A stretch of 64,000 nucleotides of DNA from a candidate division WOR-3 bacterium (lineage in GTDB: Bacteria; Hydrothermota; Tepidihabitantia; SM23-42), in contig CP070705.1 in the NCBI GenBank assembly GCA_020349965.1, positions 759,569-823,568 on the forward strand, read 5' to 3'. The number at the start of each line of letters is the position of its first letter. Within the stretch, counting starts at the first letter, position 1. Shown one piece after another: positions 3,862-34,203 of this stretch. The notes below the pieces were generated by a model. It saw only the letters and a program-made list of their open reading frames with translations. It had not been told where the DNA came from and made no database searches. A program made the position numbers and the translations under genes.

Positions 3862-6023
3862 TCGAGCCTCACCGGTTCGTTCTTCAATCTGCGTGCTGAA
3901 GGGTGGTCGAATACGAGAACAGTACTTTGCGGTAGGTACGAAGAGATCTTTACCGGCATGATGAACGAAGTGCGGCGCCCGATGATGGTTGCCCGCGCTC
4001 CGTCACGCAGCCCGAACTTCTTCGCCGTATTTTCGTTGATCCACGCGGAGCGATCATGGCGCAGTCGGTCGAATCCTCTCAATATGGCCGAGAGCGTTTT
4101 GCCGCGGTATGTGTAGGCGTTCTCCCTGACGATGAGACGTAGTGGATATGCCCGGTTCGTTTTTCTTAGGGTCGCGCGCTTCGTCACTATTTTTCTCTTT
4201 CCTGACTTCTTGGTCAGTCTCAAGTCCATGGCGCGGGCGATGGCTTCGACGATCATGTCATCCGGCATCGCTCTACCGATTGGTTCAATGGCGCGGCGTA
4301 CCCTTTTCGTTCTGTCCTCGATGTCAACCATCTGGCCGTCCGTTTCGGCGAACGTGGCTGCCGGAAGGAAGACGTCAAAGTCAAAATCGGGCAGGAAGCA
4401 ATCTTGTACAATGACCGTACCGTACTTTCTCTCCAACTTCGGCGCAACACCGACAAGGTAGAGGCAGTCGATATTCTTGCTCGTCAACATTTCTTCATGT
4501 GTACAGTGAAATCCCATCCTGGATATCCTGAGGGCGTTGGGTTGACTGAAAAGGGGGAATGTCTTGCACGATTTGCTTGACTTTTCGATCACAGAATTCG
4601 ACGGATCGTATAGCACGTACACTTTCTTGCCTTTGACCAGTCGCTGTGCGAGCTCGATTTCGGCAGCGGAAATGCCCGATTCCTTGGGAAAGCGTCCTGG
4701 GCCGCAGAGTACGTCGACGATCTTTTGCTCGGTGCCGGGGTTTGGTTTCAAGACGGTGTCGGCAAAGCGGTCTGACGGGCGTGCGAAGGCGTCGATGACG
4801 ATGAAGGTCGCCCTGTCTTTCATTTTCCTGCGTAGTGTGAGGAGGAGGACCGAGTAATCGCCGACCATGTCGGTGTTCACGATGATCATCGCAGCCTTGC
4901 CTTTGATCTCACTGAGGGCGAGCGGCCTTGGGGGAACATTCGACAGGAAAGGCATGGCCAACTTCGCGCTCAAAGATCCACCGAGCGCATAGATATTTTC
5001 GGCTGCCTCGACTGTCAACTGAGGTGAAAACAGAAATCCGGTTCGGTTTCGGTGCTCCCGCAATTTTTGCGAAACGCATTCTAGTGCTTCATCCCACTCC
5101 ACTTCGATCACCCCGTCACGTTTCTTCATCAACGGCTTTGTTATGCGTCTGGGATGGTTCACAATGGGCGCGATGGCGAAACGGCCACGTGCACAAATCT
5201 GATCTTTGTGCGGCGTGGAACAGGTTATCTTCCCGTTCGAAACATTTAGATCGACCGCGCATCCTATGCTGCAAAGCATACAGGTCGTCTTGACCGTCCT
5301 TTCCGGAGGGCCGTCATACCGGCTGAATCGATCCCTGAGTGCGCCGGTGGGGCAGATGTCGACACAGGCACCGCAGAATTGACAGCCCGATTCGAGATGG
5401 GGTAGATCGAATGCGGTGCCGACGAGCGTCTTTGGTCCGCGATGATGGAATTCGAGTGTGTGGGCGTGCCTGATTTCGTGGCATGCGCGAATGCACCTGC
5501 CGCACAGTACGCACAGGTTGTAATCGCGATCGAAGAATGGGTCGTCCCTCTGCGTCTCGAGATTTCGGTAACGGAATTCGAAATGGAGATCTTTTATGTC
5601 CATGTCCCTGACCAGATCCTGCAGTTCGCATTTGTTATTCTGTGGGCACGACTTGCAGCCAAATGTGACGGCAGACTTCTTTATGCACTCCTGGAAATTG
5701 TCGCAGTCTTTCTCGCGTTCGCATATCAGGCAGGCACTCGGATGTTCGGAAAGGATGAGCTGGAGTGTCGATCTCCTTAGTTTTCGCAGGCGCGGAGTAT
5801 CGGTCTTGATTACCATTCCGTCTTCGGCGGTCAGCGTGCAGGCGGTAAGGGGCGTCTGCTTTCCCTTCATGTCAACGATGCAGAGACGGCAACCGCCGTA
5901 CGGCGACAGATCCTTGTGGTGGCAGAGCGTGGGGATGCGGATGCCCGATCTCTGGGCGACCTGGAGCACTGTTTCACCGTATCGTGCTGTGCATTTTTTT
6001 CCGTTGATCGTGATCCTCATCAT
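3846..6023 (-). CDS. NuoG-like Fe-S subunit with a truncated molybdopterin-oxidoreductase domain; no [FeFe]-hydrogenase H-cluster motifs seen
   Basis: 725 aa. The N-terminus has a [2Fe-2S] ferredoxin (CHHKDLSPYGGCRLC) and a His-ligated 4Fe-4S motif (HPSACLICEREKDC). Two ferredoxin-type 4Fe-4S motifs follow, then a MopB Fe4S4 domain (CMLCSIGCAVD…ICARGRF) and a short MopB-like C-terminus. Confidence 0.8.
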   Translation of the reverse strand: MMRITINGKKCTARYGETVLQVAQRSGIRIPTLCHHKDLSPYGGCRLCIVDMKGKQTPLTACTLTAEDGMVIKTDTPRLRKLRRSTLQLILSEHPSACLICEREKDCDNFQECIKKSAVTFGCKSCPQNNKCELQDLVRDMDIKDLHFEFRYRNLETQRDDPFFDRDYNLCVLCGRCIRACHEIRHAHTLEFHHRGPKTLVGTAFDLPHLESGCQFCGACVDICPTGALRDRFSRYDGPPERTVKTTCMLCSIGCAVDLNVSNGKITCSTPHKDQICARGRFAIAPIVNHPRRITKPLMKKRDGVIEVEWDEALECVSQKLREHRNRTGFLFSPQLTVEAAENIYALGGSLSAKLAMPFLSNVPPRPLALSEIKGKAAMIIVNTDMVGDYSVLLLTLRRKMKDRATFIVIDAFARPSDRFADTVLKPNPGTEQKIVDVLCGPGRFPKESGISAAEIELAQRLVKGKKVYVLYDPSNSVIEKSSKSCKTFPLFSQPNALRISRMGFHCTHEEMLTSKNIDCLYLVGVAPKLERKYGTVIVQDCFLPDFDFDVFLPAATFAETDGQMVDIEDRTKRVRRAIEPIGRAMPDDMIVEAIARAMDLRLTKKSGKRKIVTKRATLRKTNRAYPLRLIVRENAYTYRGKTLSAILRGFDRLRHDRSAWINENTAKKFGLRDGARATIIGRRTSFIMPVKISSYLPQSTVLVFDHPSARRLKNEPVRLECTKS

Positions 6024-7852
6024 TTCACCGCCGGGGATACTTTCTTCACCGCGTTGAATTTAGGCGGACAGACCGTGATGCAGATGCCACACTTCGTGCA
6101 CTTTTGTTGGTCAATGGTATGTATTTTTTTCGGTTCGCCGCTGATAGCGTCACTGGGGCAATTCTTGGCGCAGACCGTACAGCCGCCACACAGTTTGTCG
6201 TCGATGACGTAGGAGATTAGATCTTTGCAGACAAGGGCGGGGCAGCGTTTTTCTTTGATGTGCGCTTCGTATTCGTCACGAAAGTATCTGAGGGTCGTCA
6301 GCACGGGATGGGGTGCGGTCTGGCCCAGTCCGCACAGTGATGAGAGTTTCACGTTCTCAGCGATGCTCTCGAGAAATTGGATGTCGCCTTCGCGGCCTTT
6401 ACCTTTTGTCTTTCGATCGAGCGTGTAGACCATGTGCTTCGTGCCCATACGACAGGGTGGGCATTTACCGCACGATTCCTCTTGCGTGAAATTAAGGAAA
6501 TATCGCGCAACATCAACCATGCACGTATCCTCGTCCATTACGATCATGCCGCCCGAGCCCATCATCGAGCCGGCCTGGGTCAGGCTTTCGTAATCGATCG
6601 GCAGGTCGAGCATGTTTTTCGGGATGCACCCGCCCGATGGACCGCCGGTTTGGACTGCCTTGAATTCTTTTCCCTGCGGGATCCCTCCGCCTATGTCGTA
6701 GATGATCTCGCGCATGGTGATTCCCATCGGTACTTCGACGAGTCCGGTATTATTGATCTTGCCGACGAGTGAGAATATCTTCGTACCCTTGCTCGTTTTC
6801 GTGCCGATCGAAGAGAACCATTTCGCGCCACGGCTGATGATCATCGGCACATTTGCCCAGGTCTCCACGTTGTTGATGTTCGTCGGTTTGCCCCAGAGCC
6901 CTTTTTCTGAAGGGTAGGGCGGTCTCTGTCTCGGTCGACCGACCTTGCCTTCGATCGATGCGATCAGCGCCGTTTCCTCGCCGCACACAAAGGCACCGGC
7001 TCCTTGGACGACTTCAATGTCGAAGTCAAAATTTGTTCCCAGGATATCCTTACCGAGCAAGCCGTATTCTTCGGCCTGCGAAAGAGCGATCTTCAAACGC
7101 TTGACGGCGAGGGGATACTCGCTGCGTACATAGACAAATCCTTTGTGCACACTGATCGCCCGGGCTCCGATCGTCATGCCTTCGATCACCGAATGAGGAT
7201 CGGCTTCCAGCACGCTGCGGTCCATGAATGCGCCCGGGTCACCTTCGTCACCGTTGCAGATTATGTACTTGATACGCCCAGGTTCGCGACGGCACAGATC
7301 CCATTTCATACCGGTCGGAAAACCGGCACCGCCTCTTCCGCGCAAACCTGATGCCTTTACTTCCTTGATTATTCGTTCCGGTGTCATTCTGGTGAGGGCT
7401 ATCTCCAGCGCCTGATACCCGTTGAAACCGATGTATTCATCGATGTTTTCCGGATCGAGTCGCCCGCGATTGCGCAATATGATCAAGCGTTGATGCTTGA
7501 AAAATTCTATGTCCATCATTTTGGGTACGGGTGCTTCTCTTGGTGAGGGTATGTACATCAATTCCTTCACGGGCCGGCCTTTGAGGAGATGTTCTTCGAC
7601 GAGATGGGGTATGTCCTTCTTCTTCATCCGCTGATAGAAGATGCCGTCGGGTTGCACGATGACGATCGGCCCCCGTTCACAGAACCCCTGGCAGCCGGTT
7701 GTAACGACACCGATTTCGTCGCTCAGTTTCTTCCTGGCGATCTCCTTCTGGAGTTCTTCCTTGATGTCGAAAGCGTGGTTGGCAACACAACCAGTCCCGG
7801 CGCAGACCAGTAGATGGAGGCGGAATTCTTCAGTCTTTCTTCTTCTTTTCAT
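6020..7852 (-). CDS. NuoF/HydB-like NADH-binding flavoprotein with an N-terminal thioredoxin-like [2Fe-2S] domain and a C-terminal 2×[4Fe-4S] ferredoxin domain
   Basis: 610 aa. It carries the NuoF FMN/NADH motifs (GRGGAGFPTGMKW, ICNGDEGDPGAF, ESCGKCPPCR). The N-terminus reads 'LLVCAGTGC…GCQGFC'. The C-terminus reads 'CGGCTVCAKNCP…CTKCGICITVCP'. Confidence 0.85.
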   Translation of the reverse strand: MKRRRKTEEFRLHLLVCAGTGCVANHAFDIKEELQKEIARKKLSDEIGVVTTGCQGFCERGPIVIVQPDGIFYQRMKKKDIPHLVEEHLLKGRPVKELMYIPSPREAPVPKMMDIEFFKHQRLIILRNRGRLDPENIDEYIGFNGYQALEIALTRMTPERIIKEVKASGLRGRGGAGFPTGMKWDLCRREPGRIKYIICNGDEGDPGAFMDRSVLEADPHSVIEGMTIGARAISVHKGFVYVRSEYPLAVKRLKIALSQAEEYGLLGKDILGTNFDFDIEVVQGAGAFVCGEETALIASIEGKVGRPRQRPPYPSEKGLWGKPTNINNVETWANVPMIISRGAKWFSSIGTKTSKGTKIFSLVGKINNTGLVEVPMGITMREIIYDIGGGIPQGKEFKAVQTGGPSGGCIPKNMLDLPIDYESLTQAGSMMGSGGMIVMDEDTCMVDVARYFLNFTQEESCGKCPPCRMGTKHMVYTLDRKTKGKGREGDIQFLESIAENVKLSSLCGLGQTAPHPVLTTLRYFRDEYEAHIKEKRCPALVCKDLISYVIDDKLCGGCTVCAKNCPSDAISGEPKKIHTIDQQKCTKCGICITVCPPKFNAVKKVSPAVK

Positions 7853-8294
7853 ACTCTTTCAGGAGCCGGTCGACCTTGTTGACCGTAGTCTGACCGTGGT
7901 ACTCGTCATCGACGACGACGATCGGTGCGAGGGCGCACGCACCGAGGCAGTTAACGGTTTTCAATGTGAATTGATTGTCTTCGGTCGTGCCGCCGGTTTC
8001 GATCCGCAAGCGATCTTCGAGCCGGGACAGAACAGAGGGTGCGCCCCGGACATGGCATGCCGTGCCCATGCAGACCGTGACCAGATGTTCACCCCGCGGT
8101 TTTAGACTGAATGCGGAATAGAACGTGGCGATACTGTAAATACCACTCAACGGCATTCCCAGTCGTTGACCTGCATATTCGAGGACGTCCTTCGGAAGGT
8201 AGTTGTAAATGGACTGAATATCGTTGAGGATCTGTATAATCCTTTCTTTTCGGTAACCGTGGTGTTTGATGATGCGATCGATTTTTTTCATCAA
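7830..8294 (-). CDS. NuoE/HoxE-like [2Fe-2S] thioredoxin-fold subunit
   Basis: 154 aa with the motifs CMGTACHVRG…CLGACALAP. It overlaps the nuoF-like start and is the first gene of the operon. Confidence 0.85.
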   Translation of the reverse strand: MMKKIDRIIKHHGYRKERIIQILNDIQSIYNYLPKDVLEYAGQRLGMPLSGIYSIATFYSAFSLKPRGEHLVTVCMGTACHVRGAPSVLSRLEDRLRIETGGTTEDNQFTLKTVNCLGACALAPIVVVDDEYHGQTTVNKVDRLLKEYEKKKKD

Positions 8295-8424
8295 GCGCTA
8301 TTATACATACCATTGCAAAAAAATCAAGGGTTTGATGAGGTAATTTTTTGATCCTCAAGTACCTAATTCGTGGTCCGCCCTGTGATGTGTCTAATATACT
8401 ACTTTGTGTTGTGAGTCAACCTAC

Positions 8425-9750
8425 CTATTCGATGAGCACGACCTTTTTGGTCTTGGGCACGCCGTCGATATTTACCTGAATGAAATAGGTGCCGGCAGGT
8501 ACAGGTCTGTTTTGTCCGTCCAATCCATCCCAATTTATCGTATGAGTACCTGCGGTCTGTTCGGGTTCGATCATCGTCCTTATGAGTCGGCCTGAGTTAT
8601 CGTAAATATTCATGCAGAGTTCACCCGGTCTTTGCATAAAGGTTTCTATCTGGCACGGTAGTACCAGCGGGTTGGGTGCTACGCCTATTGGTGAATCTTC
8701 GCCCATTGGTTTTGGAATGAGTTCGGCAATACCCACGGGGTCAGTGTATAACGCGAATGTGGTGGCGAGTGCAACACCGGCATCACCTCCGAAAATGTAG
8801 ACGAGACCATTCTCTGGGCTGTAGCTGCCGCACGAGCCTCGTCTCGGAGCGACCGTGCCTGAAGGAACAACCTGTTGCCAGCTGATATCCGTGAGATTCA
8901 GTGCATAGACATCGCTGAGCAGTATAATGTAATAGGGACTACCTTCGTAACCAAACCCCACTATCAAAGCATTTTGAACCTCATCGTAGGCACAGAATGC
9001 TTGTCCTCTGCACTGGGGTGTGGGGCCGCTTGGATAGAGTTGCTCCCAGTTCTCATTTCCATACGTTAGATCGAGTGCCCAGACATCGCTCATCATGGGC
9101 GTTGCACAGCCGCTGAATACGATGATGCGGTGCTGGGTTTGATCGTATACTGAAGCACATGCGCTTCTCGGTATTGGAAGTGGTCCCGAAGGCCCGAGTT
9201 GTGTCCAGGCCATCGTTGTGAGATCGAGTTCCCAGGTTTCGTTGAGGCGTATGCCACCGCCAATGTCGCCGCCAAAGAATATCAATCTGTGGCTGACAGG
9301 GTCATAGATGCCAGTAACCTCTGTACGCGGACAAGGCGGTGTACCAGATGGCGTGAGTTGTGTCCAGTATTCGGCGCCGAGTGTAAGGTCAAGCCTCCAT
9401 ATATCATTGTAGAAAGTATATGCACTTCTTCCGCCGAACATGAACATCTGGTTAGTGGTAGGGTCGAGGATCAGTGATGGGTTCCTGCGGGGCGGTGGCG
9501 TCGGTGAGGTAACCTCTACTTGCTGCCAACTTTCGAGGGACGGGTCGAATGCCCAGATTTCATCATAACAATCACCGGAAAGATTGTAATCCTGACCACC
9601 GTACATGATTATTCGATGGTTGACCGTATCCGAAATCATACTTGCCATGGAGCGTTGTGCAGGATAGCAGTCCACAACGCAGAGGCTGCCTCCATATAAT
9701 GCGTTTATCGCAATAGCACATACTAATACTACAACAGGATATCTATGCAT
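8425..9750 (-). CDS. Secreted Kelch-repeat protein with a T9SS-type C-terminal sorting domain
   Basis: It has a signal-peptide-like N-terminus and repeated Kelch motifs (…GG…W.D…W). The C-terminal ~80 aa (NIYDNSGRLIRT…GTYFIQV…KKVVLIE) fits the Por secretion tail / FlgD-Ig-like pattern. Confidence 0.7.
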   Translation of the reverse strand: MHRYPVVVLVCAIAINALYGGSLCVVDCYPAQRSMASMISDTVNHRIIMYGGQDYNLSGDCYDEIWAFDPSLESWQQVEVTSPTPPPRRNPSLILDPTTNQMFMFGGRSAYTFYNDIWRLDLTLGAEYWTQLTPSGTPPCPRTEVTGIYDPVSHRLIFFGGDIGGGIRLNETWELDLTTMAWTQLGPSGPLPIPRSACASVYDQTQHRIIVFSGCATPMMSDVWALDLTYGNENWEQLYPSGPTPQCRGQAFCAYDEVQNALIVGFGYEGSPYYIILLSDVYALNLTDISWQQVVPSGTVAPRRGSCGSYSPENGLVYIFGGDAGVALATTFALYTDPVGIAELIPKPMGEDSPIGVAPNPLVLPCQIETFMQRPGELCMNIYDNSGRLIRTMIEPEQTAGTHTINWDGLDGQNRPVPAGTYFIQVNIDGVPKTKKVVLIE

Positions 9751-9812
9751 ACCTACCTCCGGTGGGATTATAGTAGAGTGGAAATAATTGTCAATAGTGT
9801 AATTCTATACTC

Positions 9813-9840
9813 TTGACTTTTTTCCGCGTATTCATATAAT
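9813..9840 (+). promoter_or_regulatory. σ70-type promoter for the FG-GAP cargo gene
   Basis: TTGACT (9813-18), a 16-nt spacer, and TATAAT (9835-40). A GGGAGGAG ribosome-binding site lies at 9881-88, and the ATG is at 9891. Confidence 0.55.
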
Positions 9841-9890
9841 TACTTTAAAGGGGTTTCGACTTAAGTCTAAGTAAGCGAAAGGGAGGAGTT

Positions 9891-12011
9891 ATGGTAAGTA
9901 GATGTATTTACGCAGCTTCTGTCATGTTCTTATTCTCTTTTGGCCAGAGTGAGTGGGTAGAGACAACGCAGGGTGATTTTGCCGACGGTCAATTCGAGCG
10001 CAACATCTATGCATCTCATGCTGCAGGTGGCGCAGTGGAATTCGCCCCGCGGTTCGATCTCAACAATGACGGATACATCGATCTGTTCACTGCCGACCGT
10101 TCCGGGCCTTATGTCCGCATATATTGGGGAAGCGCAGGCGGATATTCGGCCGGCAATGTGCAGTTATTCAACAGCAGCGGCGGAGCAAACTGCGATGCGG
10201 CAGACCTCAATTGCGACGGTTACCCTGAATTCTTGGTCGCTCACTATCTCGAGAAGATTTCGATATACTGGGGTACGGCCGGTGGACCCGATCCAATGAA
10301 TTATACTGATCTGCCGATGACGGCGTGGAACCGGAAAGGCATATTCTCAGCCGACTTCGACAAAGATGGGTATCTCGACATTGCGACAACGCAGGGCATT
10401 GACCCCGACCACGGAGCGGTTTACTGGGGAAGTGACACCGGATACTCGGTCAGTGATCGTATCGACCTGCCTTGTACGTTTGGAAATCATAACATTGAGG
10501 TCGCGGATTTGAACCTGGATAATTGGCTGGATATCCTCTTTGTCGAGTACGCGGGTGGTTATGCAGGGCAGATCTCGATCTACTGGGGTAGCGTTAGTGG
10601 ATTCATTCCTTCCGCGGTCACGATCCTTCCCGGGCTGATAGGGAACAGCGGGGTCTCGGTCGCAGATCTGAACGGAGATGGGTATCTGGATCTCATCGGT
10701 ACCGGCTGGTACGATCCTAGGTCGTATATCTACTGGGGCACTGCAGGCGGATACTCCGTTGCCAATATGCAGGTATTGAGTCCGGGATACTGCTATGGTG
10801 GAAGTTCGGTCGCCGATTTGGACGGCGATTCCTATCTCGACATTGTCTATCACCATGGTGGGTATGGCGTCGATTACCAAAAGGTATACTGGGGCAGCGT
10901 CTCGGGTTACTCGAACGGCAACTACAGCGATCTCGGGATTCCCCTTGAAACATCGGGGGGACTTGTTGCCGATTTTAACGGCGACGGGCACCTGGACGTC
11001 TTCTGCAACACGAGAACTCCTGGATGGGAGAGCCACGTATTTTATGGGCCCTCTCATACGACGAGCCAGACGTTGCCGGTCTATCAGGATCATCACGCGA
11101 TGTTCCGTGAAATCGGCAATGTCTATGACCGTGAGTACTACGAAGACTATTTGTCTTCGGTGTTCGATGCCGGTGCGCTTACTGATTGGGGTACGGTCGA
11201 ATGGGATGCTGCGACACCCGGTCAATCGTCGGTTCTACTGTGGATCCGCACCGGCAGCACGGCTGTGCCTGATTCTACTTGGTCGAATTGGGAAACGGTA
11301 AGCAACGGCGGCCACATACCCGATTTCCTAAATGCTCAGTACCTGCAATATAGAGCCCGTTTATGTTATGACAATCCGTGTTTTCTGCCGGCGCTGAGAG
11401 AGGTTTCAATCGGTTATGGAACATCGACCGCAATCCTGGCTTCAGTGGCGATCAAACCCAGGACGATCAACCTGGGCAGTCACGGCATATTCACTGCATT
11501 CATAACCCTGCCGACGGGATATTGTCACACGGATATCGATCGCTCGACTGTCATGTGTGAAGGGGCAAATGCAGTTTGGGGTCATGCCACGCCCCCTTTC
11601 TATACGGCAAAGTTCAATGTGCAGGATCTTGTTGGGGTCGTTGCCGGTTCTTCGGTCACGTTCACGGTCAGTGGTGAGCTGAGCGACGGGACGGAGTTTT
11701 TAGGGTATGATACGGTCAGGGTCGTTGACCACGTGGATGGTGAGCAGGTCGAGTGCAGACCTAATCCCGTTTTGACCGAAGCCACCATCTCATTTTCGAA
11801 TATCGCCGATGAAAAAGTGGCGGTGAAGATATATGATGTCAAAGGGGCGCTGGTCCGTTCATTTGATGGTGTCGAGTGCATGGGCGGTTATGGCGGCATT
11901 ATGTGGGACAGACATGACAATAGGGGACGAAGAATGCCGTCAGGCATCTATCTTTTCATTATAGAGGGCAAGAGTACGCGCCTCGCTGAAAAGATAATTG
12001 TCATGGACTGA
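9891..12011 (+). CDS. Secreted FG-GAP/VCBS-repeat protein with a T9SS-type C-terminal sorting domain
   Basis: It shows repeated 'ADLNGDGYLD / YWG' integrin-alpha-like FG-GAP motifs. The C-terminal domain (PNPVLTEATISF…VKIYDVKGALV…GIYLFI) is typical of T9SS cargo. A GGGAGGAG ribosome-binding site precedes the ATG. Confidence 0.7.
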   Translation: MVSRCIYAASVMFLFSFGQSEWVETTQGDFADGQFERNIYASHAAGGAVEFAPRFDLNNDGYIDLFTADRSGPYVRIYWGSAGGYSAGNVQLFNSSGGANCDAADLNCDGYPEFLVAHYLEKISIYWGTAGGPDPMNYTDLPMTAWNRKGIFSADFDKDGYLDIATTQGIDPDHGAVYWGSDTGYSVSDRIDLPCTFGNHNIEVADLNLDNWLDILFVEYAGGYAGQISIYWGSVSGFIPSAVTILPGLIGNSGVSVADLNGDGYLDLIGTGWYDPRSYIYWGTAGGYSVANMQVLSPGYCYGGSSVADLDGDSYLDIVYHHGGYGVDYQKVYWGSVSGYSNGNYSDLGIPLETSGGLVADFNGDGHLDVFCNTRTPGWESHVFYGPSHTTSQTLPVYQDHHAMFREIGNVYDREYYEDYLSSVFDAGALTDWGTVEWDAATPGQSSVLLWIRTGSTAVPDSTWSNWETVSNGGHIPDFLNAQYLQYRARLCYDNPCFLPALREVSIGYGTSTAILASVAIKPRTINLGSHGIFTAFITLPTGYCHTDIDRSTVMCEGANAVWGHATPPFYTAKFNVQDLVGVVAGSSVTFTVSGELSDGTEFLGYDTVRVVDHVDGEQVECRPNPVLTEATISFSNIADEKVAVKIYDVKGALVRSFDGVECMGGYGGIMWDRHDNRGRRMPSGIYLFIIEGKSTRLAEKIIVMD

Positions 12012-29511: not shown

Positions 29512-29539
29512 TTGACTTCGGCGGGAAATTCTGTATAAT
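29512..29539 (+). promoter_or_regulatory. σ70-type promoter candidate upstream of the leuC-like cluster
   Basis: TTGACT (29512-29517), a 16-nt spacer, and TATAAT (29534-29539) preceded by TG. A ~100 nt leader follows, with a GGAGG site before the ATG at 29641. Confidence 0.55.
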
Positions 29540-29640: not shown

Positions 29641-30948
29641 ATGATGGGAAAGACCATGGCGGAGAAGATTCTATCCGAGAAGAGCGGCAAGGATGCACAC
29701 GCAGGCGATATCGTGATCGCTCATGTCCATGTTGCTGCTTTTCAGGACGGCACAGGGCCGCTAGGCGTACGTCAGCTCCAGAAAATGAGTTTGGAAGAGG
29801 TCCGGGCGCGCCGGTCAATACTATTCATCGATCATGCGGCGCCGTCGCCACGCAAGGAGCTATCGAATGATCATATGTTATTACGTGAATTCAGCCGAAA
29901 AACCGGCGCCATATTGTCTGAAATTGGTGAAGGGGTGATCCATCAGCGGTTGGTTGAGTCCTACGCGCGCCCCGGTGATGTTGTCATCGGCGCCGATTCG
30001 CATACCTGTACATCGGGTGCGCTGGGCGCCTTTGCTACAGGCATGGGTTCTACTGACGTGGCAATCGGTATGGCAATGGGAAAGACATGGTTCAAGGTTC
30101 CCGAGACGTATCGAATCGAGGTGAAGGGTGATTTTAAGCCCGGGGTCGGCTCAAAAGATCTCATCCTTTACCTCATTGGTATGTTGGGCGCTGATGGTGC
30201 AACGTACAAAGCCTTGGAATTCGGCGGCCCGGCGATCGATAAGATGTCCATGGAGTCACGTTTTGTGTTGTCCAATATGGCGGTTGAGGCAGGCGCCAAG
30301 GCCGGCTTGATTGCATCGGACAGGAAGACAAGACAGTATCTAAAGGCACGCGGTCGCGTCAAGGATTGGCGTGCATTGGCACCTGAGGAGGGCGCGAAGT
30401 ATGAGCGCGTCATCGTTGTCGATGCCCGCAAGCTGGTACCCCAGGTCGCATTCCCGCATACTGTTGATAACACCAAGGACATTGACAAGGCACGCGGGAT
30501 AAAGATCGACCAGGTCTTCATCGGTACCTGCACTAACGGCCGCATTGAAGACCTGAGAATCGCTGCTAGGATTCTGAGGGGTAGAGAACGTGCTCCTCAT
30601 ACAAGACTCGTTGTCGTTCCGGCGTCACGCGAAATATATCTTGAAGCGCTCGAAAGTGGATTGTTGAATATCTTCGTGCGCGCTGGCGGCATTATTATGG
30701 GTCCGGGATGCGGTCCATGTGTCGGCGTCCATCAGGGTGTGCTTGGGGACGGCGAGGTCTGTCTGTCGACGGCAAACCGCAATTTCCGCGGACGAATGGG
30801 CAATCCCGACGGTTTCGTCTACCTCGCATCGCCGGCTACTGCAGCCTTCAGTGCGATAAAAGGGCAGATCAGTGATCCGAGAGATTTCTTCGCGAGGCGG
30901 CAGCACAAGAAAGTTGCCAAGCCCGGAAAAGCGCGAAAGAAGAGGTAG
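29641..30948 (+). CDS. LeuC-family hydro-lyase large subunit (3-isopropylmalate dehydratase / homoaconitase type; possibly an aconitase here)
   Basis: 435 aa of the short archaeal-type LeuC length. It has Fe-S ligand motifs (CTSGALGAF, GTCTNGR, GPGCGPCVG). Its genomic context is citrate synthase and IDH rather than leuA/leuB. Confidence 0.8.
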   Translation: MMGKTMAEKILSEKSGKDAHAGDIVIAHVHVAAFQDGTGPLGVRQLQKMSLEEVRARRSILFIDHAAPSPRKELSNDHMLLREFSRKTGAILSEIGEGVIHQRLVESYARPGDVVIGADSHTCTSGALGAFATGMGSTDVAIGMAMGKTWFKVPETYRIEVKGDFKPGVGSKDLILYLIGMLGADGATYKALEFGGPAIDKMSMESRFVLSNMAVEAGAKAGLIASDRKTRQYLKARGRVKDWRALAPEEGAKYERVIVVDARKLVPQVAFPHTVDNTKDIDKARGIKIDQVFIGTCTNGRIEDLRIAARILRGRERAPHTRLVVVPASREIYLEALESGLLNIFVRAGGIIMGPGCGPCVGVHQGVLGDGEVCLSTANRNFRGRMGNPDGFVYLASPATAAFSAIKGQISDPRDFFARRQHKKVAKPGKARKKR

Positions 30949-30990
30949 GAAAATTAATAGATAGTTCTGTAGGAAGCAAGGAGGAAGAAG

Positions 30991-32271
30991 ATGGCTAACA
31001 TGATAGACAAACTTGCAGGGACAATTCCCGCACTGCGGGATGACATCAAGGCTTTTGTTAAGCAGAACGGTGACAAGGTTATATCTGAGGTTACGGTTGC
31101 ACAGGCGTACGGGGGGATGCGAGGCGTGAAGGCACTTGTTTGCGACACCTCGGTCGTGCCTCCGGACAAGGGGCTCATTATTCGTAGTCACCCGATCGGT
31201 GAGTTGAAAGAAAAACTGCCAGAAGCAGTATTCTATTTGCTTGTCACCGGTGAGATGCCGGATGATGCTGCTGTACAAGCCTTGACAAAGGACTTTGGTA
31301 GCCGTGCCATAGTGCCTGATTATGTCTGGAAGACATTGGCCGCGATGCCAAAGGATTCACACCCGATGGTAATGTTCAGTTTGGGTATTTTGGCCATGGA
31401 GAAAGAATCGGTATTCAGGAAAAAGTACACCGAAGGTATGAAGAAAGAAGATTATTGGCAATCGACGCTCGAAGACTGCCTCAATCTCATCGGCAAATTA
31501 CCCAATCTTGCAGCCGGTATATACAGGATGAGATTTGACAAGGGACCTCGGATCGAGCCCGAGCCAAAGCTCGACTGGGCGGCGAACTACGCGCATATGC
31601 TCGGTATCTCTGATCCCAGTGGTGAGTTTGCCAATCTCATGAGACTCTATATGGTGCTGCATTCTGATCATGAAGGTGGTAACGTGAGTGCCCATACGTG
31701 CCACTGCGTTGGTTCGGCTCTTTCTGATCCTTACTACGCTGTCTCGGCCGGTTTGAACGGTCTGGCTGGTCCCTTACACGGGCTAGCAAATCAAGAATGC
31801 CTGCGCTGGGTTATCATGGTCAAGGAGAAATTCGGCGGTGTTCCAACGGATGAGCAGTTGAAGCAATTTGCCTGGGATACCCTCAATTCGGGGCAGGTCA
31901 TTCCCGGCTATGGTCACGCCGTACTGAGGATCACAGACCCGCGTTTTGACGCCTTCCGTGAATTCGGCGCCCGTGTGTGTGCCGATGATCCCTATTTCCA
32001 GATTGTAGATAAGGTATTCAGGGTCGTGCCGGGAGTGCTGAAGGAGCATGGCAAAGCTAAGGATCCATGGCCCAACGTCGATGCCGCTTCGGGTTGTCTG
32101 CTCTATCATTTTGGTATGACGGAATTCCAATATTACACCGTCCTCTTCGGCGTGTCGAGGGCGATGGGGATGTGTGCTCAGTTGATCGTCAGCCGTGCGC
32201 TAGGAGAGGCAATTGAGCGTCCAAAGTCAGTGACCACGGGTTGGGTCAAGCAGGCAGTGGCCAAAGGATGA
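30991..32271 (+). CDS. Citrate synthase, mitochondrial-like (type I) form
   Basis: 426 aa. The signature 'GYGHAVLRITDPR' is the eukaryotic/mitochondrial-type citrate synthase signature; the common bacterial form is GFGHRVY. Confidence 0.85.
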   Translation: MANMIDKLAGTIPALRDDIKAFVKQNGDKVISEVTVAQAYGGMRGVKALVCDTSVVPPDKGLIIRSHPIGELKEKLPEAVFYLLVTGEMPDDAAVQALTKDFGSRAIVPDYVWKTLAAMPKDSHPMVMFSLGILAMEKESVFRKKYTEGMKKEDYWQSTLEDCLNLIGKLPNLAAGIYRMRFDKGPRIEPEPKLDWAANYAHMLGISDPSGEFANLMRLYMVLHSDHEGGNVSAHTCHCVGSALSDPYYAVSAGLNGLAGPLHGLANQECLRWVIMVKEKFGGVPTDEQLKQFAWDTLNSGQVIPGYGHAVLRITDPRFDAFREFGARVCADDPYFQIVDKVFRVVPGVLKEHGKAKDPWPNVDAASGCLLYHFGMTEFQYYTVLFGVSRAMGMCAQLIVSRALGEAIERPKSVTTGWVKQAVAKG

Positions 32272-32295
32272 TGTAGTCCAGTCAGGAGGTAAGTC

Positions 32296-32796
32296 ATGGT
32301 CCTTAGGGGAAAGGCCTGGAAGTTTGGCGATAGCATATCAACTGATTTGATCTGCCCAGGCAGATTTTTCCATCTGCGTTCGAACCTACCCGAACTCGCC
32401 AAGCATGTTCTTGAAGATGCTGATCCGAATTTTGCGTCGCGGATGTCGAAGGGAGATTTCGTCGTGGCGGGCAATAATTTCGGCTTGGGTAGTTCCCGTG
32501 AACATGCACCTACGATAATAAAATTGGCTGGAGTTTCCGCCGTGCTGGCCAAGTCATTTGCGAGGATTTTCTACCGTAATGCAATAAATGTAGGCCTTCC
32601 GCTGCTTGAGTGCGATACCGATAAGATCGAATTGAGCGACGAAATAGAAGTTGATCTGGCAGCCGGTATGATAAAGAATGTTTCAAAAGGTATCGAACTC
32701 AAAGCCCATCCGCTCCCAAAAGCGATGCTTAATATATTGAATGATGGTGGACTTCTCGCCCATATCGAGAAACACGGTGGTTTCAAATTAGATTAA
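32296..32796 (+). CDS. LeuD-family hydro-lyase small subunit
   Basis: 166 aa with a LeuD/aconitase swivel-domain motif (GDSISTDLI…GNNFGLGSSREHAP). Confidence 0.8.
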   Translation: MVLRGKAWKFGDSISTDLICPGRFFHLRSNLPELAKHVLEDADPNFASRMSKGDFVVAGNNFGLGSSREHAPTIIKLAGVSAVLAKSFARIFYRNAINVGLPLLECDTDKIELSDEIEVDLAAGMIKNVSKGIELKAHPLPKAMLNILNDGGLLAHIEKHGGFKLD

Positions 32797-32813
32797 TCCA
32801 AGGAGAGAACACT

Positions 32814-34124
32814 ATGAAAAGGTTGAAAAAAAAGAGTCCGAAAGTGACCAAGGCGATGAAAAAGAGGAAAGTGATGAAGAGCAGGAAGGCAGCCACAACT
32901 AAAAGGAAGAAGGCGGGAAAAAGCAAGCCCTCAGCTCCAATTGTCAGGGCTCAAGAGCATTTCAAGGGTATACTCGAAGCTCAGATTGTACGAGTGAACC
33001 GCATAAAGAAAGCCCAGGATTGGATAGACTATGCGAAGGTGAAGCCAGTGATTGTTGGCATTCTTGGCGGAGACGGGATCGGACCCTACATAACAGCTGA
33101 GGCAAAACGGGTGCTTGAACACCTGCTCAACGGTGAAGTTGCCCGGGGAAAGGTCGAATTCCGTGTGATCGAAGGAATGACCATCGAGCGGAGGTCAGAG
33201 GTCGGAAAAGCCATCCCGGACGACATTCTGCGGGAAGTGAAGAAATGCCACGTTACGTTGAAGGGGCCGACGACGACACCAAAGAAAGGCGACCCCTGGC
33301 CAAACATCGAAAGCGCGAACGTGGCGATGCGGAAGGAGCTGGATCTTTTTGCCAACGTTCGGCCGGTCAAGGTTCCCAAACTCGGTATAGACTGGATGTT
33401 CTTTCGGGAGAACACCGAAGATATGTATGCACTGGGTCCGTTCGGCATAGAGGTTACGCCCGATATCGCGATCGATTTCAGACTGATAACTAGACCCGGT
33501 AGCCACCGTATCATCAAAATGGCATTCGAATATGCAAAGAAGAACGGAATCAATCGTGTCACGGCCGTAACAAAGGCGAATGTGGTAAAAACGACCGACG
33601 GTCTGTTCCTCAAGACATTCTACGAGATCGCAAAGTCATACTCGGGGATCGAGGCGGATGATTGGTTTATCGATATTATGACGGCGAAGTTAGTCGATGA
33701 AAAACGCCGCCGGGAGTTTAAGGTGATGGTGTTGCCCAATCTTTACGGTGACATTCTAACCGACGAAGCCGCTGAATTTCAGGGTGGCGTGGGTACTGCC
33801 GGTAGTGCGAATGTCGGCAAGCGGTATGCCATGTTCGAGGCAATCCATGGCAGTGCTCCGCGCATGGTCAAAGAAGGCCGGGCGCAATATGCAGATCCAA
33901 GCAGCGTCATCCGTGCCGGTTCCATGTTGTTGAATCATATCGGCTATAGAGAGTTGGGTAATAAGTTGGAGATGGCACTCGATATATGCGGTCAGTACGA
34001 GAAGAAGCTGGTGATGACCGGGCGTTCTACCGGTGCGAACGGACGTGAATTCTGTGATTACATACTCCAAACGATGGCTGACCCGAATCTCGTTGCGCGC
34101 TGGAAATCATATCAGCAGGTGTAG
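32814..34124 (+). CDS. Isocitrate/isopropylmalate dehydrogenase-family enzyme (probably isocitrate dehydrogenase) with a Lys-rich N-terminal extension
   Basis: 436 aa with the motifs 'GILGGDGIGPYI', 'NLYGDILTDEAAEFQGG' and 'GSAP'. The first ~47 aa are K/R-rich (MKRLKKKSPKVTKAMKKRKVMKSRK…). A GGAGAG ribosome-binding site precedes the 32814 ATG. Confidence 0.8.
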   Translation: MKRLKKKSPKVTKAMKKRKVMKSRKAATTKRKKAGKSKPSAPIVRAQEHFKGILEAQIVRVNRIKKAQDWIDYAKVKPVIVGILGGDGIGPYITAEAKRVLEHLLNGEVARGKVEFRVIEGMTIERRSEVGKAIPDDILREVKKCHVTLKGPTTTPKKGDPWPNIESANVAMRKELDLFANVRPVKVPKLGIDWMFFRENTEDMYALGPFGIEVTPDIAIDFRLITRPGSHRIIKMAFEYAKKNGINRVTAVTKANVVKTTDGLFLKTFYEIAKSYSGIEADDWFIDIMTAKLVDEKRRREFKVMVLPNLYGDILTDEAAEFQGGVGTAGSANVGKRYAMFEAIHGSAPRMVKEGRAQYADPSSVIRAGSMLLNHIGYRELGNKLEMALDICGQYEKKLVMTGRSTGANGREFCDYILQTMADPNLVARWKSYQQV

Positions 34125-34140
34125 GTTATTTCATTCTGAT

Positions 34141-34169
34141 GCCCCGTCGGTCGGCGGGGCATTTTTTTT
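34141..34169 (+). terminator. Rho-independent terminator after the icd-like gene
   Basis: A GC-rich hairpin (gccccg-tcggtcgg-cggggc) is followed by T8. Confidence 0.7.
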
Positions 34170-34203
34170 GTCCCACATCCCGAGCAATTGGCAGCCCGTG
34201 CAC

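Follow-up and report, generated by a model that had tools for sequence, protein, structure and literature searches.

A LeuCD-type hydro-lyase encoded on both sides of a citrate synthase gene is the probable aconitase of a candidate division WOR-3 bacterium

How does a bacterium turn citrate into isocitrate when the genes on either side of its citrate synthase gene resemble those of a leucine-pathway isomerase? The question is raised by a locus from a candidate division WOR-3 bacterium (contig CP070705.1, assembly GCA_020349965.1), of which one 64-kb stretch of DNA, here called the window, was analysed. At window positions 29641-34124, the gene of a LeuC-like hydro-lyase subunit is followed by a citrate synthase gene, the gene of a LeuD-like subunit, and a gene of the isocitrate dehydrogenase (IDH) family. 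A preliminary description of this sequence had proposed that the LeuCD pair works as an aconitase between the citrate synthase and the IDH. The proposal gains support from the phylogeny of the large subunit, the residues of substrate specificity, the gene context, the displacement of the pair in two related loci, and a table of aconitase genes in WOR-3. We conclude that the LeuCD pair is probably the aconitase of the cell, serving the route from citrate synthase to IDH.

The proposed pathway is simple. The citrate synthase would condense acetyl-CoA and oxaloacetate to citrate. The 435-aa LeuC-like and the 166-aa LeuD-like proteins would form a heterodimer, a split [4Fe-4S] aconitase, which would convert citrate to isocitrate via cis-aconitate, and the product of the fourth gene would yield 2-oxoglutarate by oxidative decarboxylation of isocitrate. 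Together, the four genes would represent a single operon serving the tricarboxylic acid (TCA) cycle in its oxidative branch. Substrate choice would be set mainly at two sites, Arg28 in a loop of LeuD and Gln35 of LeuC. Structurally, Arg28 lies in an RSNLP motif at the position of Arg580 in mitochondrial aconitase, where it would hold the additional carboxylate that citrate and isocitrate carry. Gene content, signals of an operon, clade membership, the signature residues and the kept linkage to citrate synthase and IDH are observed; we infer from them what the enzyme does, what Arg28 and Gln35 contribute, and that the source genome has no other aconitase.

The large subunit was placed in a neighbour-joining tree of 245 LeuC-type sequences and 417 columns, which includes representatives of a 1.84-billion-protein library and two enzymes of Methanocaldococcus jannaschii. 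The window LeuC falls in a clade of 51 members, named clade A, with a bootstrap of 69/100. The preliminary description had looked to phylogeny for a separation from true 3-isopropylmalate (IPM) isomerases and homoaconitases, and the tree provides it for the two characterised enzymes, as the M. jannaschii IPM isomerase (MJ0499) and homoaconitase (MJ1003) both stand outside. Besides WOR-3, clade A includes Zixibacteria, Dehalococcoidales, Actinomycetota and Melainabacteria. It takes in every sequence with the LeuD loop HLR[ST]NLP, and none with the loop of an IPM isomerase or a homoaconitase. The single-chain PRK07229 aconitases form a separate clade with a bootstrap of 100/100.

Substrate preference in heterodimeric members of the superfamily is set by a recognition loop of the small subunit (Jeyakanthan et al. 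2010; Lee et al. 2012; both by way of the summary in PMC7308503). The window LeuD was compared with the LeuD genes of 80 loci from genomes, the top-scoring 80 among 600 or more matches and one of them from a WOR-3 genome, and of 80 loci from metagenomes. The loop of the window LeuD reads PGRFFHLR28SNLPELAK. Among the loci listed, the pattern PGRxxHLR[ST]N-L-x-ELAK, mostly with NLPELAK, is present in every clade member with a linked LeuD. The PGRxxHLR[ST]NLPELAK loop occurs in WOR-3, Zixibacteria, Actinomycetota, Dehalococcoidales, Gastranaerophilales and a metagenome-assembled genome (MAG) labelled delta-proteobacterium, with an IDH-family gene bearing an S-x-N motif as its neighbour. Shorter loops without the Arg (YLVY, YLNT, FLVT and similar) occur in various taxa beside a LeuB-type dehydrogenase gene, often with LeuA. 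This short, Arg-free form is that of the M. jannaschii IPM isomerase subunit MJ1277 and of the LeuB-linked loci, and the FFHLR28SNLP of the window departs from it. A third type, GKYKFK, occurs in Coriobacteriia, Eubacteriales, Methanomassiliicoccales, Omnitrophota and Thermoprotei.

The window loop finds its counterpart in recognised aconitases. The motif [YFL]RSN[LIV]P is present in 111 of 120 homologues of the PRK07229 aconitase at locus L117, and RSN[LIV]P is found in all three PRK07229 members that were scored against the family model (P0248, 891 bits; L117, 949 bits; L153, 968 bits). Arg580 of pig mitochondrial aconitase was located, from the PDB chains, in TDHISAAGPWLKFR580GHLD. In an L-INS-i alignment, Arg28 of the window LeuD, the Arg of the PRK07229 motif and Arg580 of the pig enzyme share one column, at which the IPM isomerase and the homoaconitase are gapped. 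In the large subunit, Gln35 of the window LeuC (VAAFQ35DGTG) aligns with Gln72 of pig aconitase, the numbering of which was confirmed. Gln holds this position in all 51 clade members, in 118 of 120 WOR-3 homologues and in 120 of 120 PRK07229 aconitases; MJ0499 and MJ1003 carry His, and other LeuC-type sequences mostly His or Asn. In the Lauble/Stout structures of mitochondrial aconitase, both Gln72 and Arg580 reportedly contact the substrate. The window pair shares with PRK07229 the loop (HLRSNLP) and the Gln; the single fused polypeptide of that family is here two genes with the citrate synthase gene between them. These comparisons support the view that the hydro-lyase pair carries aconitase-type specificity determinants.

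Membership of the superfamily is clear from the catalytic residues. Aconitase-superfamily proteins are marked by three Cys ligands of the cluster, an Asp-Ser-His triplet, the motif NRNFxGR and, in the swivel domain, GSSRE with its catalytic Ser and Arg. In the window LeuC, Cys297, Cys357, Cys360, D119-S120-H121, R380 and R385 are invariant in the alignment, NRNFRGR spans residues 379-385, and the LeuD contains GSSREHA at residues 65-71. Within the superfamily, the large subunit passes the subfamily models TIGR01343 hacA_fam (571 bits), NF001614 (569 bits) and TIGR02086 IPMI_arch (557 bits). The small subunit passes TIGR02087 LEUD_arch with 188.6 bits (cut-off 108.95). The equivalog models are all missed: those of IPM isomerase (TIGR02083 LEU2, 481.4 bits against 610.65; TIGR02084 leud, 191 against 245.85), those of homoaconitase (NF040615 HacA_Meth, 470.3 against 550; the HacB models NF040604/NF040625, 146.7 and 192.9 against 230, the higher value being that of HacB2), and the PRK07229/TIGR01342 aconitase model (379.8 bits for LeuC and 90.7 for LeuD, cut-off 612). 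None of the nearest LeuC representatives reaches any equivalog cut-off either, and the whole neighbourhood is without a function assigned by curated models. The closest large-subunit homologues are 75-95% identical to the window LeuC; all those with a phylum-level name belong to WOR-3, and they are labelled 3-isopropylmalate dehydratase. Identity to the fused PRK07229 aconitases is 36-38%.

The gene context adds evidence of another kind. Among 26 metagenome loci whose citrate synthase is at least 77% identical to that of the window, 24 are consistent with the order LeuC, citrate synthase, LeuD, IDH; all four genes are present in 22, and two of the 24 end at contig edges. The same order is found amid wholly different neighbours in a complete WOR-3 genome (CP070834.1). 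Because the arrangement recurs in 24 of 26 loci and has unrelated flanks in CP070834.1, it is not a chance juxtaposition, and its conservation counts in favour of the aconitase reading. The wider synteny (RlmN-AcyP...FabG-FabF-CoaE) is kept in the closest relatives only, and therefore the operon moves as a unit.

Beyond WOR-3, clade-A LeuCD genes keep the company of IDHs. In every listed clade-A locus with an adjacent dehydrogenase gene, that dehydrogenase is of the IDH family with S-x-N; besides the window, LeuC, LeuD and IDH genes adjoin in L004, L007, L010, L012, L014-L018, L022 and L068. Two of the partners are bona fide NADP-IDHs by TIGR00183 (645.8 bits at L097 and 666.4 bits at the zixibacterial L007, cut-off 567.3). 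In the same scan, LeuCD genes with the IPM isomerase loop are followed by a LeuB-type gene and often preceded by LeuA. No leuA or leuB stands beside any listed clade-A locus, where the only LeuA-family neighbours are NifV-like synthases. Such a gene lies directly upstream at L010, L020 and L068; the L010 synthase passes the NifV homocitrate synthase model (541.7 bits, cut-off 462.9), that of L068 falls below the cut-off, and that of L020 matched no model at the threshold used. Re-citrate synthases belong with this NifV/LeuA group (Li et al. 2007, as cited in another paper). At L015, the order is carboxyltransferase, PYC_OADA carboxylase subunit, LeuC, LeuD, IDH, malate dehydrogenase, a hypothetical gene, and fumarase alpha and beta, of which L014 has a variant with malic enzyme. 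Relatives of the window pair lie in TCA operons, alongside genes of IDHs and of candidate citrate synthases that are either of Si or of Re type.

Five further loci (L097, L098, L101, L104 and L109, operon at about 4600-9300 in each) have the window order in mosaic form. Their citrate synthases are 77-83%, LeuC 64-67% and LeuD 65-68% identical to those of the window. Their IDHs are of another type, 37-39% identical to the window IDH at about 110-127 bits, and the one scanned, that of L097, is the TIGR00183 enzyme mentioned above. This suggests operons whose parts have been exchanged between lineages.

The same context bears on another reading of the locus, in which the pair would serve the leucine or isoleucine pathway as a normal isomerase beside a LeuB-like dehydrogenase, as a remnant of a leuCDB operon into which the citrate synthase gene landed by accident. 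LeuC-LeuD-dehydrogenase is indeed a common order of true leu operons in the same scan, and automatic annotation speaks of an IPM dehydratase. The window dehydrogenase, on the other hand, carries S-x-N rather than the E..LL of LeuB, and its closest solved relatives are IDHs; LEU2 and leud cut-offs are missed by the subunits, whose loop and Gln35 are aconitase-like. The insertion has been kept in those 24 of 26 close loci and also in a second LeuCD lineage, one combined with a bona fide NADP-IDH, and the window has no leuA. We consider such a remnant very improbable.

Two loci show what may take the place of the pair. L117 (FWPU01000017.1, 3825-8544) comes from a sister lineage, its closest named relative being Candidatus Oleimicrobiaceae (Zhuqueibacterota, of the FCB group like WOR-3), and encodes an orthologous citrate synthase 72% identical to that of the window, then the PRK07229 aconitase, then an orthologous IDH of the window's own subfamily (67% identical). 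At L153 (1433-5968), a citrate synthase 67% identical to that of the window is followed by a PRK07229 aconitase and an NADP-IDH. Between citrate synthase and IDH, the same slot is thus taken in some loci by a recognised aconitase and in others by this LeuCD clade. WOR-3 names are lacking from the 120 sequences nearest to the Zhuqueibacterota-type PRK07229 aconitase, which is a weak negative only.

The distribution of canonical aconitases in WOR-3 points the same way. A 2025 survey of 181 WOR-3 MAGs has no mention of aconitase in its text. In the part of its Table S4 that was available, K01681 (ACO/acnA) and K01682 (acnB) are scored 0 in all 44 WOR-3 genome columns, and 6 of the 44 have citrate synthase along with the two IDH orthologue groups K00031 and K00030. 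Neither succinate dehydrogenase nor fumarate reductase is scored in those same columns. This part of the table is what an oxidative branch, and not a complete cycle, would be expected to show.

One alternative is a promiscuous or bifunctional pair, which would act as aconitase in this operon and, being the sole LeuCD of a small genome, would also take part in leucine or isoleucine synthesis elsewhere in the cell by isomerising isopropylmalate or citramalate. The public annotation of all WOR-3 homologues as 3-isopropylmalate/(R)-2-methylmalate dehydratase agrees with it, as does the known broad specificity of archaeal-type LeuCD, the MJ0499/MJ1277 entries being named isopropylmalate/citramalate isomerase. 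Additionally, the WOR-3-type locus L094 has an extra beta-decarboxylating dehydrogenase gene (147-1292, motif SPIVGLRQ, below all NCBIfam cut-offs) just upstream of LeuC-CS-LeuD-IDH (CS, citrate synthase), and the window holds no second LeuCD in a search limited to its 64 kb. The loop Arg and Gln35 are fixed in the clade, however, and absent from IPM isomerase-type enzymes, and neither the window nor the clade-A loci listed have leuA or leuB alongside, NifV-like synthases aside. Dehalococcoides mccartyi has, besides its TCA-linked pair, a distinct ilv-leu operon with leuA, leuC, leuD and leuB (PMC4720418), and therefore the paralogues are specialised. The part of the WOR-3 survey supplement that was covered holds no leuC/K01703 rows, and a literature search on WOR-3 leucine biosynthesis or auxotrophy found nothing useful. 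Overall, we regard dual function as unlikely, though as the most probable of the alternatives.

Several observations weigh against an aconitase role. Support for clade A is moderate, with a bootstrap of 69 in a distance-based tree. Two of the close citrate synthase loci (L096 and L105) hold the citrate synthase gene alone. The WOR-3 locus L004 (MAG JZ-2_202302_bins_123.1, 6992-9974), whose proteins are orthologous to those of the window and 73-78% identical, has LeuC-LeuD-IDH with no citrate synthase within 7 kb; since LeuC-LeuD-IDH is also the rule outside WOR-3, the insertion of the citrate synthase gene is a derived trait of a sub-lineage. The IDH fails every curated equivalog, its best score being 266.5 bits on the NADP-IDH model NF006673 (cut-off 509). 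The absence of acnA and acnB rests, for the part of the table available, on KEGG-based scoring of 44 columns, among which this lineage may not be represented. The literature searched contained no enzymatic, genetic or expression data on members of clade A. Lastly, the homoaconitase of M. jannaschii also has an Arg in its loop, one column earlier in the L-INS-i alignment, and the loop Arg alone therefore cannot part aconitase from homoaconitase.

The last point leads to the reading of the locus as homoaconitase and homoisocitrate dehydrogenase for 2-oxoacid elongation, of the alpha-aminoadipate lysine or the coenzyme-B type. Apart from the shared loop Arg, the top models of the two subunits (TIGR01343 hacA_fam for the large, HacB2_Meth for the small) and the NifV-like "homocitrate synthase" genes before some relatives speak for it. 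The HacA and HacB equivalog cut-offs are nevertheless missed, MJ1003 stands outside the clade with His instead of Gln, and the window loop is longer than the YLRT loop of homoaconitase. The RSNLP loop is common to PRK07229 aconitases, the partner synthase is a citrate synthase and would make no homocitrate, and the partner dehydrogenases include bona fide NADP-IDHs and, in D. mccartyi, an IDH that was confirmed by biochemistry. This reading is hardly credible, and aconitase remains the function that we favour for the LeuCD pair.

Coordinates are collected in Table 1. The gene order given in the preliminary description was recovered as four plus-strand open reading frames at exactly the same positions, separated by gaps of 42, 24 and 17 nt, and the strong terminator with which it had closed the cluster is present, starting 14 nt past the IDH stop codon. 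The gene that follows, FabG, comes with a promoter-like site separate from this one operon. The four genes look like a self-contained operon because of the promoter-like site upstream, the terminator downstream, and the separate promoter-like site of FabG. By reading of the translations, the flanks would be unrelated housekeeping genes (RlmN-like, acylphosphatase, FabG, FabF and CoaE). The whole 64 kb contains no open reading frame of the LeuA family and no second LeuC, LeuD, IDH-family or citrate synthase frame; together with the nature of the adjoining dehydrogenase, this upholds the earlier remark that leuA and leuB are missing.

Table 1. Predicted features of the operon and its signals (window coordinates)
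Feature	Coordinates	Strand	Remarks
Sigma-70-like promoter candidate	29512..29539	+	TTGACT-16 nt-TATAAT, 11/12 consensus matches; pattern match only; about 100 nt 5' of the LeuC gene
LeuC-like large subunit of a split [4Fe-4S] hydro-lyase, predicted catalytic subunit of the aconitase	29641..30948	+	435 aa; Pfam Aconitase
(Si)-citrate synthase, eukaryote-like PRK09569 type	30991..32271	+	426 aa; between the two hydro-lyase subunit genes
LeuD-like small (swivel-domain) subunit	32296..32796	+	166 aa; Pfam Aconitase_C
Isocitrate dehydrogenase, beta-decarboxylating dehydrogenase family	32814..34124	+	436 aa; Pfam Iso_dh
Intrinsic terminator	34138..34173	+	11-bp stem (7 G-C pairs, 34138-34163), 4-nt loop, then TTTTTTGT (T-run)

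The two partner enzymes were also classified. The citrate synthase had been described as carrying the GYGHAVLR signature of eukaryotic and mitochondrial enzymes rather than the common bacterial form. The signature is present and the type is eukaryote-like, but it is also a curated bacterial subfamily. The protein passes NF007128/PRK09569 with 560.6 bits (cut-off 344) and misses the eukaryotic equivalog TIGR01793 cit_synth_euk (535.1 bits, below 619.75), and such an enzyme is not in itself remarkable in a bacterium of the FCB group. Its best solved relative is 8xxd (516 bits), with pig and chicken mitochondrial citrate synthases at 443-466 bits. The catalytic-motif residues are His227 (DHEGGN), His309 (GYGHAVLR, within VIPGYGHAVLR) and Asp364 (NVDAASG), and DHEGGN, GYGHAVLR and NVDAxSG are kept in the alignment with 8xxd. 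A 2-methylcitrate cycle was also considered and dropped: the protein scores only 152.6 bits on the 2-methylcitrate/citrate synthase-II model, and no prpB- or prpD-like gene was found.

The fourth gene product is predicted to be an isocitrate dehydrogenase of an unclassified subfamily. The substrate motif of the Escherichia coli enzyme comprises Ser113 and Asn115. The window protein has the corresponding S-x-N as Ser167-Ala-Asn169, and the same KSANV occurs in the Thermus thermophilus IDH 2d1c. Its top solved matches are all IDHs, namely the NAD-IDHs 6lky, 6m3s and 6ltf together with 2d1c. The N-terminus consists of a conserved helix of about 40 aa and a Lys-rich extension of about 44 aa. Low-complexity tails rich in Lys and Arg are found at this N-terminus (residues 1 to about 44, 32814-32945) and at the C-terminus of LeuC (residues about 417-435, 30889-30945); no other termini in the window are as basic, and the citrate synthase and LeuD have no such tails. 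Among WOR-3 relatives, the tails differ in length and sequence, being absent from L004, L094, L099 and L100. Tails that exceed 100 aa and are rich in Ala, Lys and Pro occur in P0121 (a 60%-identical representative) and in L131.

Two side groups came up in the same scans. In gut Melainabacteria-type MAGs (Gastranaerophilales and others; L006, L008, L009, L011, L013, L019 and L082), a clade-A LeuC with the Gln stands alone at about 7000-8250, with no LeuD-like open reading frame within 7 kb even at E <= 10, amid genes that have nothing to do with it (for a sigma factor, enolase, an ABC transporter and a Kdo transferase). L068, from a MAG related to these, has NifV-like-LeuC-LeuD-IDH. A second LeuCD group (L021, L023, L024, L025, L027 and L028) belongs to Eubacteriales, Coriobacteriia, Omnitrophota and Methanomassiliicoccales, has the loop G[KR]YKF[KA] and, in most of those examined, Gln at the Gln72 position. 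A LeuA-family gene lies directly upstream in L021, L023, L025 and L028, those of L021 and L023 passing the NifV model, and the adjoining dehydrogenase always has S-x-N, L025 being without an adjacent one. A further lineage of split aconitases or homoaconitases, with Re-citrate or homocitrate synthases as partners, may be represented here. Similar loops are seen at L026, L029 and L051, which are from Thermoprotei, and L026, the one checked, has His at the Gln72 position.

A further idea is that citrate synthase, aconitase and IDH form a "metabolon", assembled during translation of the operon and channelling citrate and isocitrate, which the placement of the citrate synthase gene and the basic tails would reflect; we give this little credence. 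The wider meaning of the finding lies elsewhere. If the clade is an aconitase, the gap between citrate synthase and IDH is closed in WOR-3, where the proteins are now labelled 3-isopropylmalate dehydratase, and by the same signatures it would close in Zixibacteria, Dehalococcoidia, some Actinomycetota and gut Melainabacteria. The phylum-wide WOR-3 survey judged TCA completeness without aconitase, with acnA and acnB scored absent in the part of its table available. The HLR[ST]NLP loop and Gln35 offer a simple annotation rule for aconitase-type and leucine-type LeuCD, as well as a small, testable specificity switch in a compact system within the aconitase superfamily. Understanding of the TCA cycle itself is unchanged, and the value is mainly for annotation and for the study of specificity in the superfamily.

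Among known systems, the closest is that of D. mccartyi. Its IDH (DET0450/KB1_0495) has been validated biochemically, and "aconitase large/small subunits", a two-subunit putative aconitase, are annotated directly upstream of it in a TCA cluster (Islam et al. 2015, PMC4720418, Fig. S2). A split LeuCD-type aconitase is thus an existing proposal at the level of annotation, and not new. As in the window, LeuC-like and LeuD-like subunits are encoded upstream of the IDH, and L015 reproduces the published D. mccartyi operon order. The Dehalococcoidales and related loci (L012, L014-L018 and L022) share the clade and HLRSNLPELAK, with LeuC 56-61% identical to that of the window. The IDH is not of the window's subfamily, and the aconitase role is predicted in both organisms. 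The citrate synthase of D. mccartyi, reportedly of Re type and encoded elsewhere, differs from the Si-type, eukaryote-like enzyme encoded between the subunit genes here. An oxidative-branch cluster of the Bacteroides type with a eukaryote-like citrate synthase was reportedly described by Baughn and Malamy in 2002.

The literature searched yielded no characterised two-subunit, heterodimeric or LeuCD-type aconitase, and a paper on gene fusion and fission notes that AcnA can be viewed as a fusion of LeuCD-like parts. PRK07229 (NF005558)/TIGR01342 acon_putative belongs to the superfamily of the window pair and shares with it the RSN[LIV]P loop, a Gln aligned with Gln72, and citrate synthase and IDH as partners (L117, L153), but is one fused polypeptide of about 645 aa in a clade of its own, whereas the window encodes two proteins. 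The M. jannaschii IPM isomerase (MJ0499/MJ1277; 4kp1, 3vba) and homoaconitase (MJ1003/MJ1271; 4kp2, 2pkp) are alike in size and two-subunit architecture, and come closest to the window pair among solved structures (large subunit, 418 and 383 bits; small subunit, 167 and 130 bits). Their loops (YLVY and YLRT), however, are 1-2 residues shorter than the FFHLRS of the window, they have His in place of Gln35 and lie outside the clade, and their partners are LeuA/LeuB or AksA/AksF-type enzymes, not citrate synthase and IDH. Pig mitochondrial aconitase (7acn) shares the predicted reaction and the equivalents of Arg580 and Gln72, but is a monomeric, four-domain enzyme of 754 aa that reaches no more than about 145 bits with the LeuC of the window. 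Set beside these systems, what is new here is the membership of WOR-3, the Si-type citrate synthase gene between the subunit genes, the two diagnostic residues, and the link to PRK07229 by displacement in situ.

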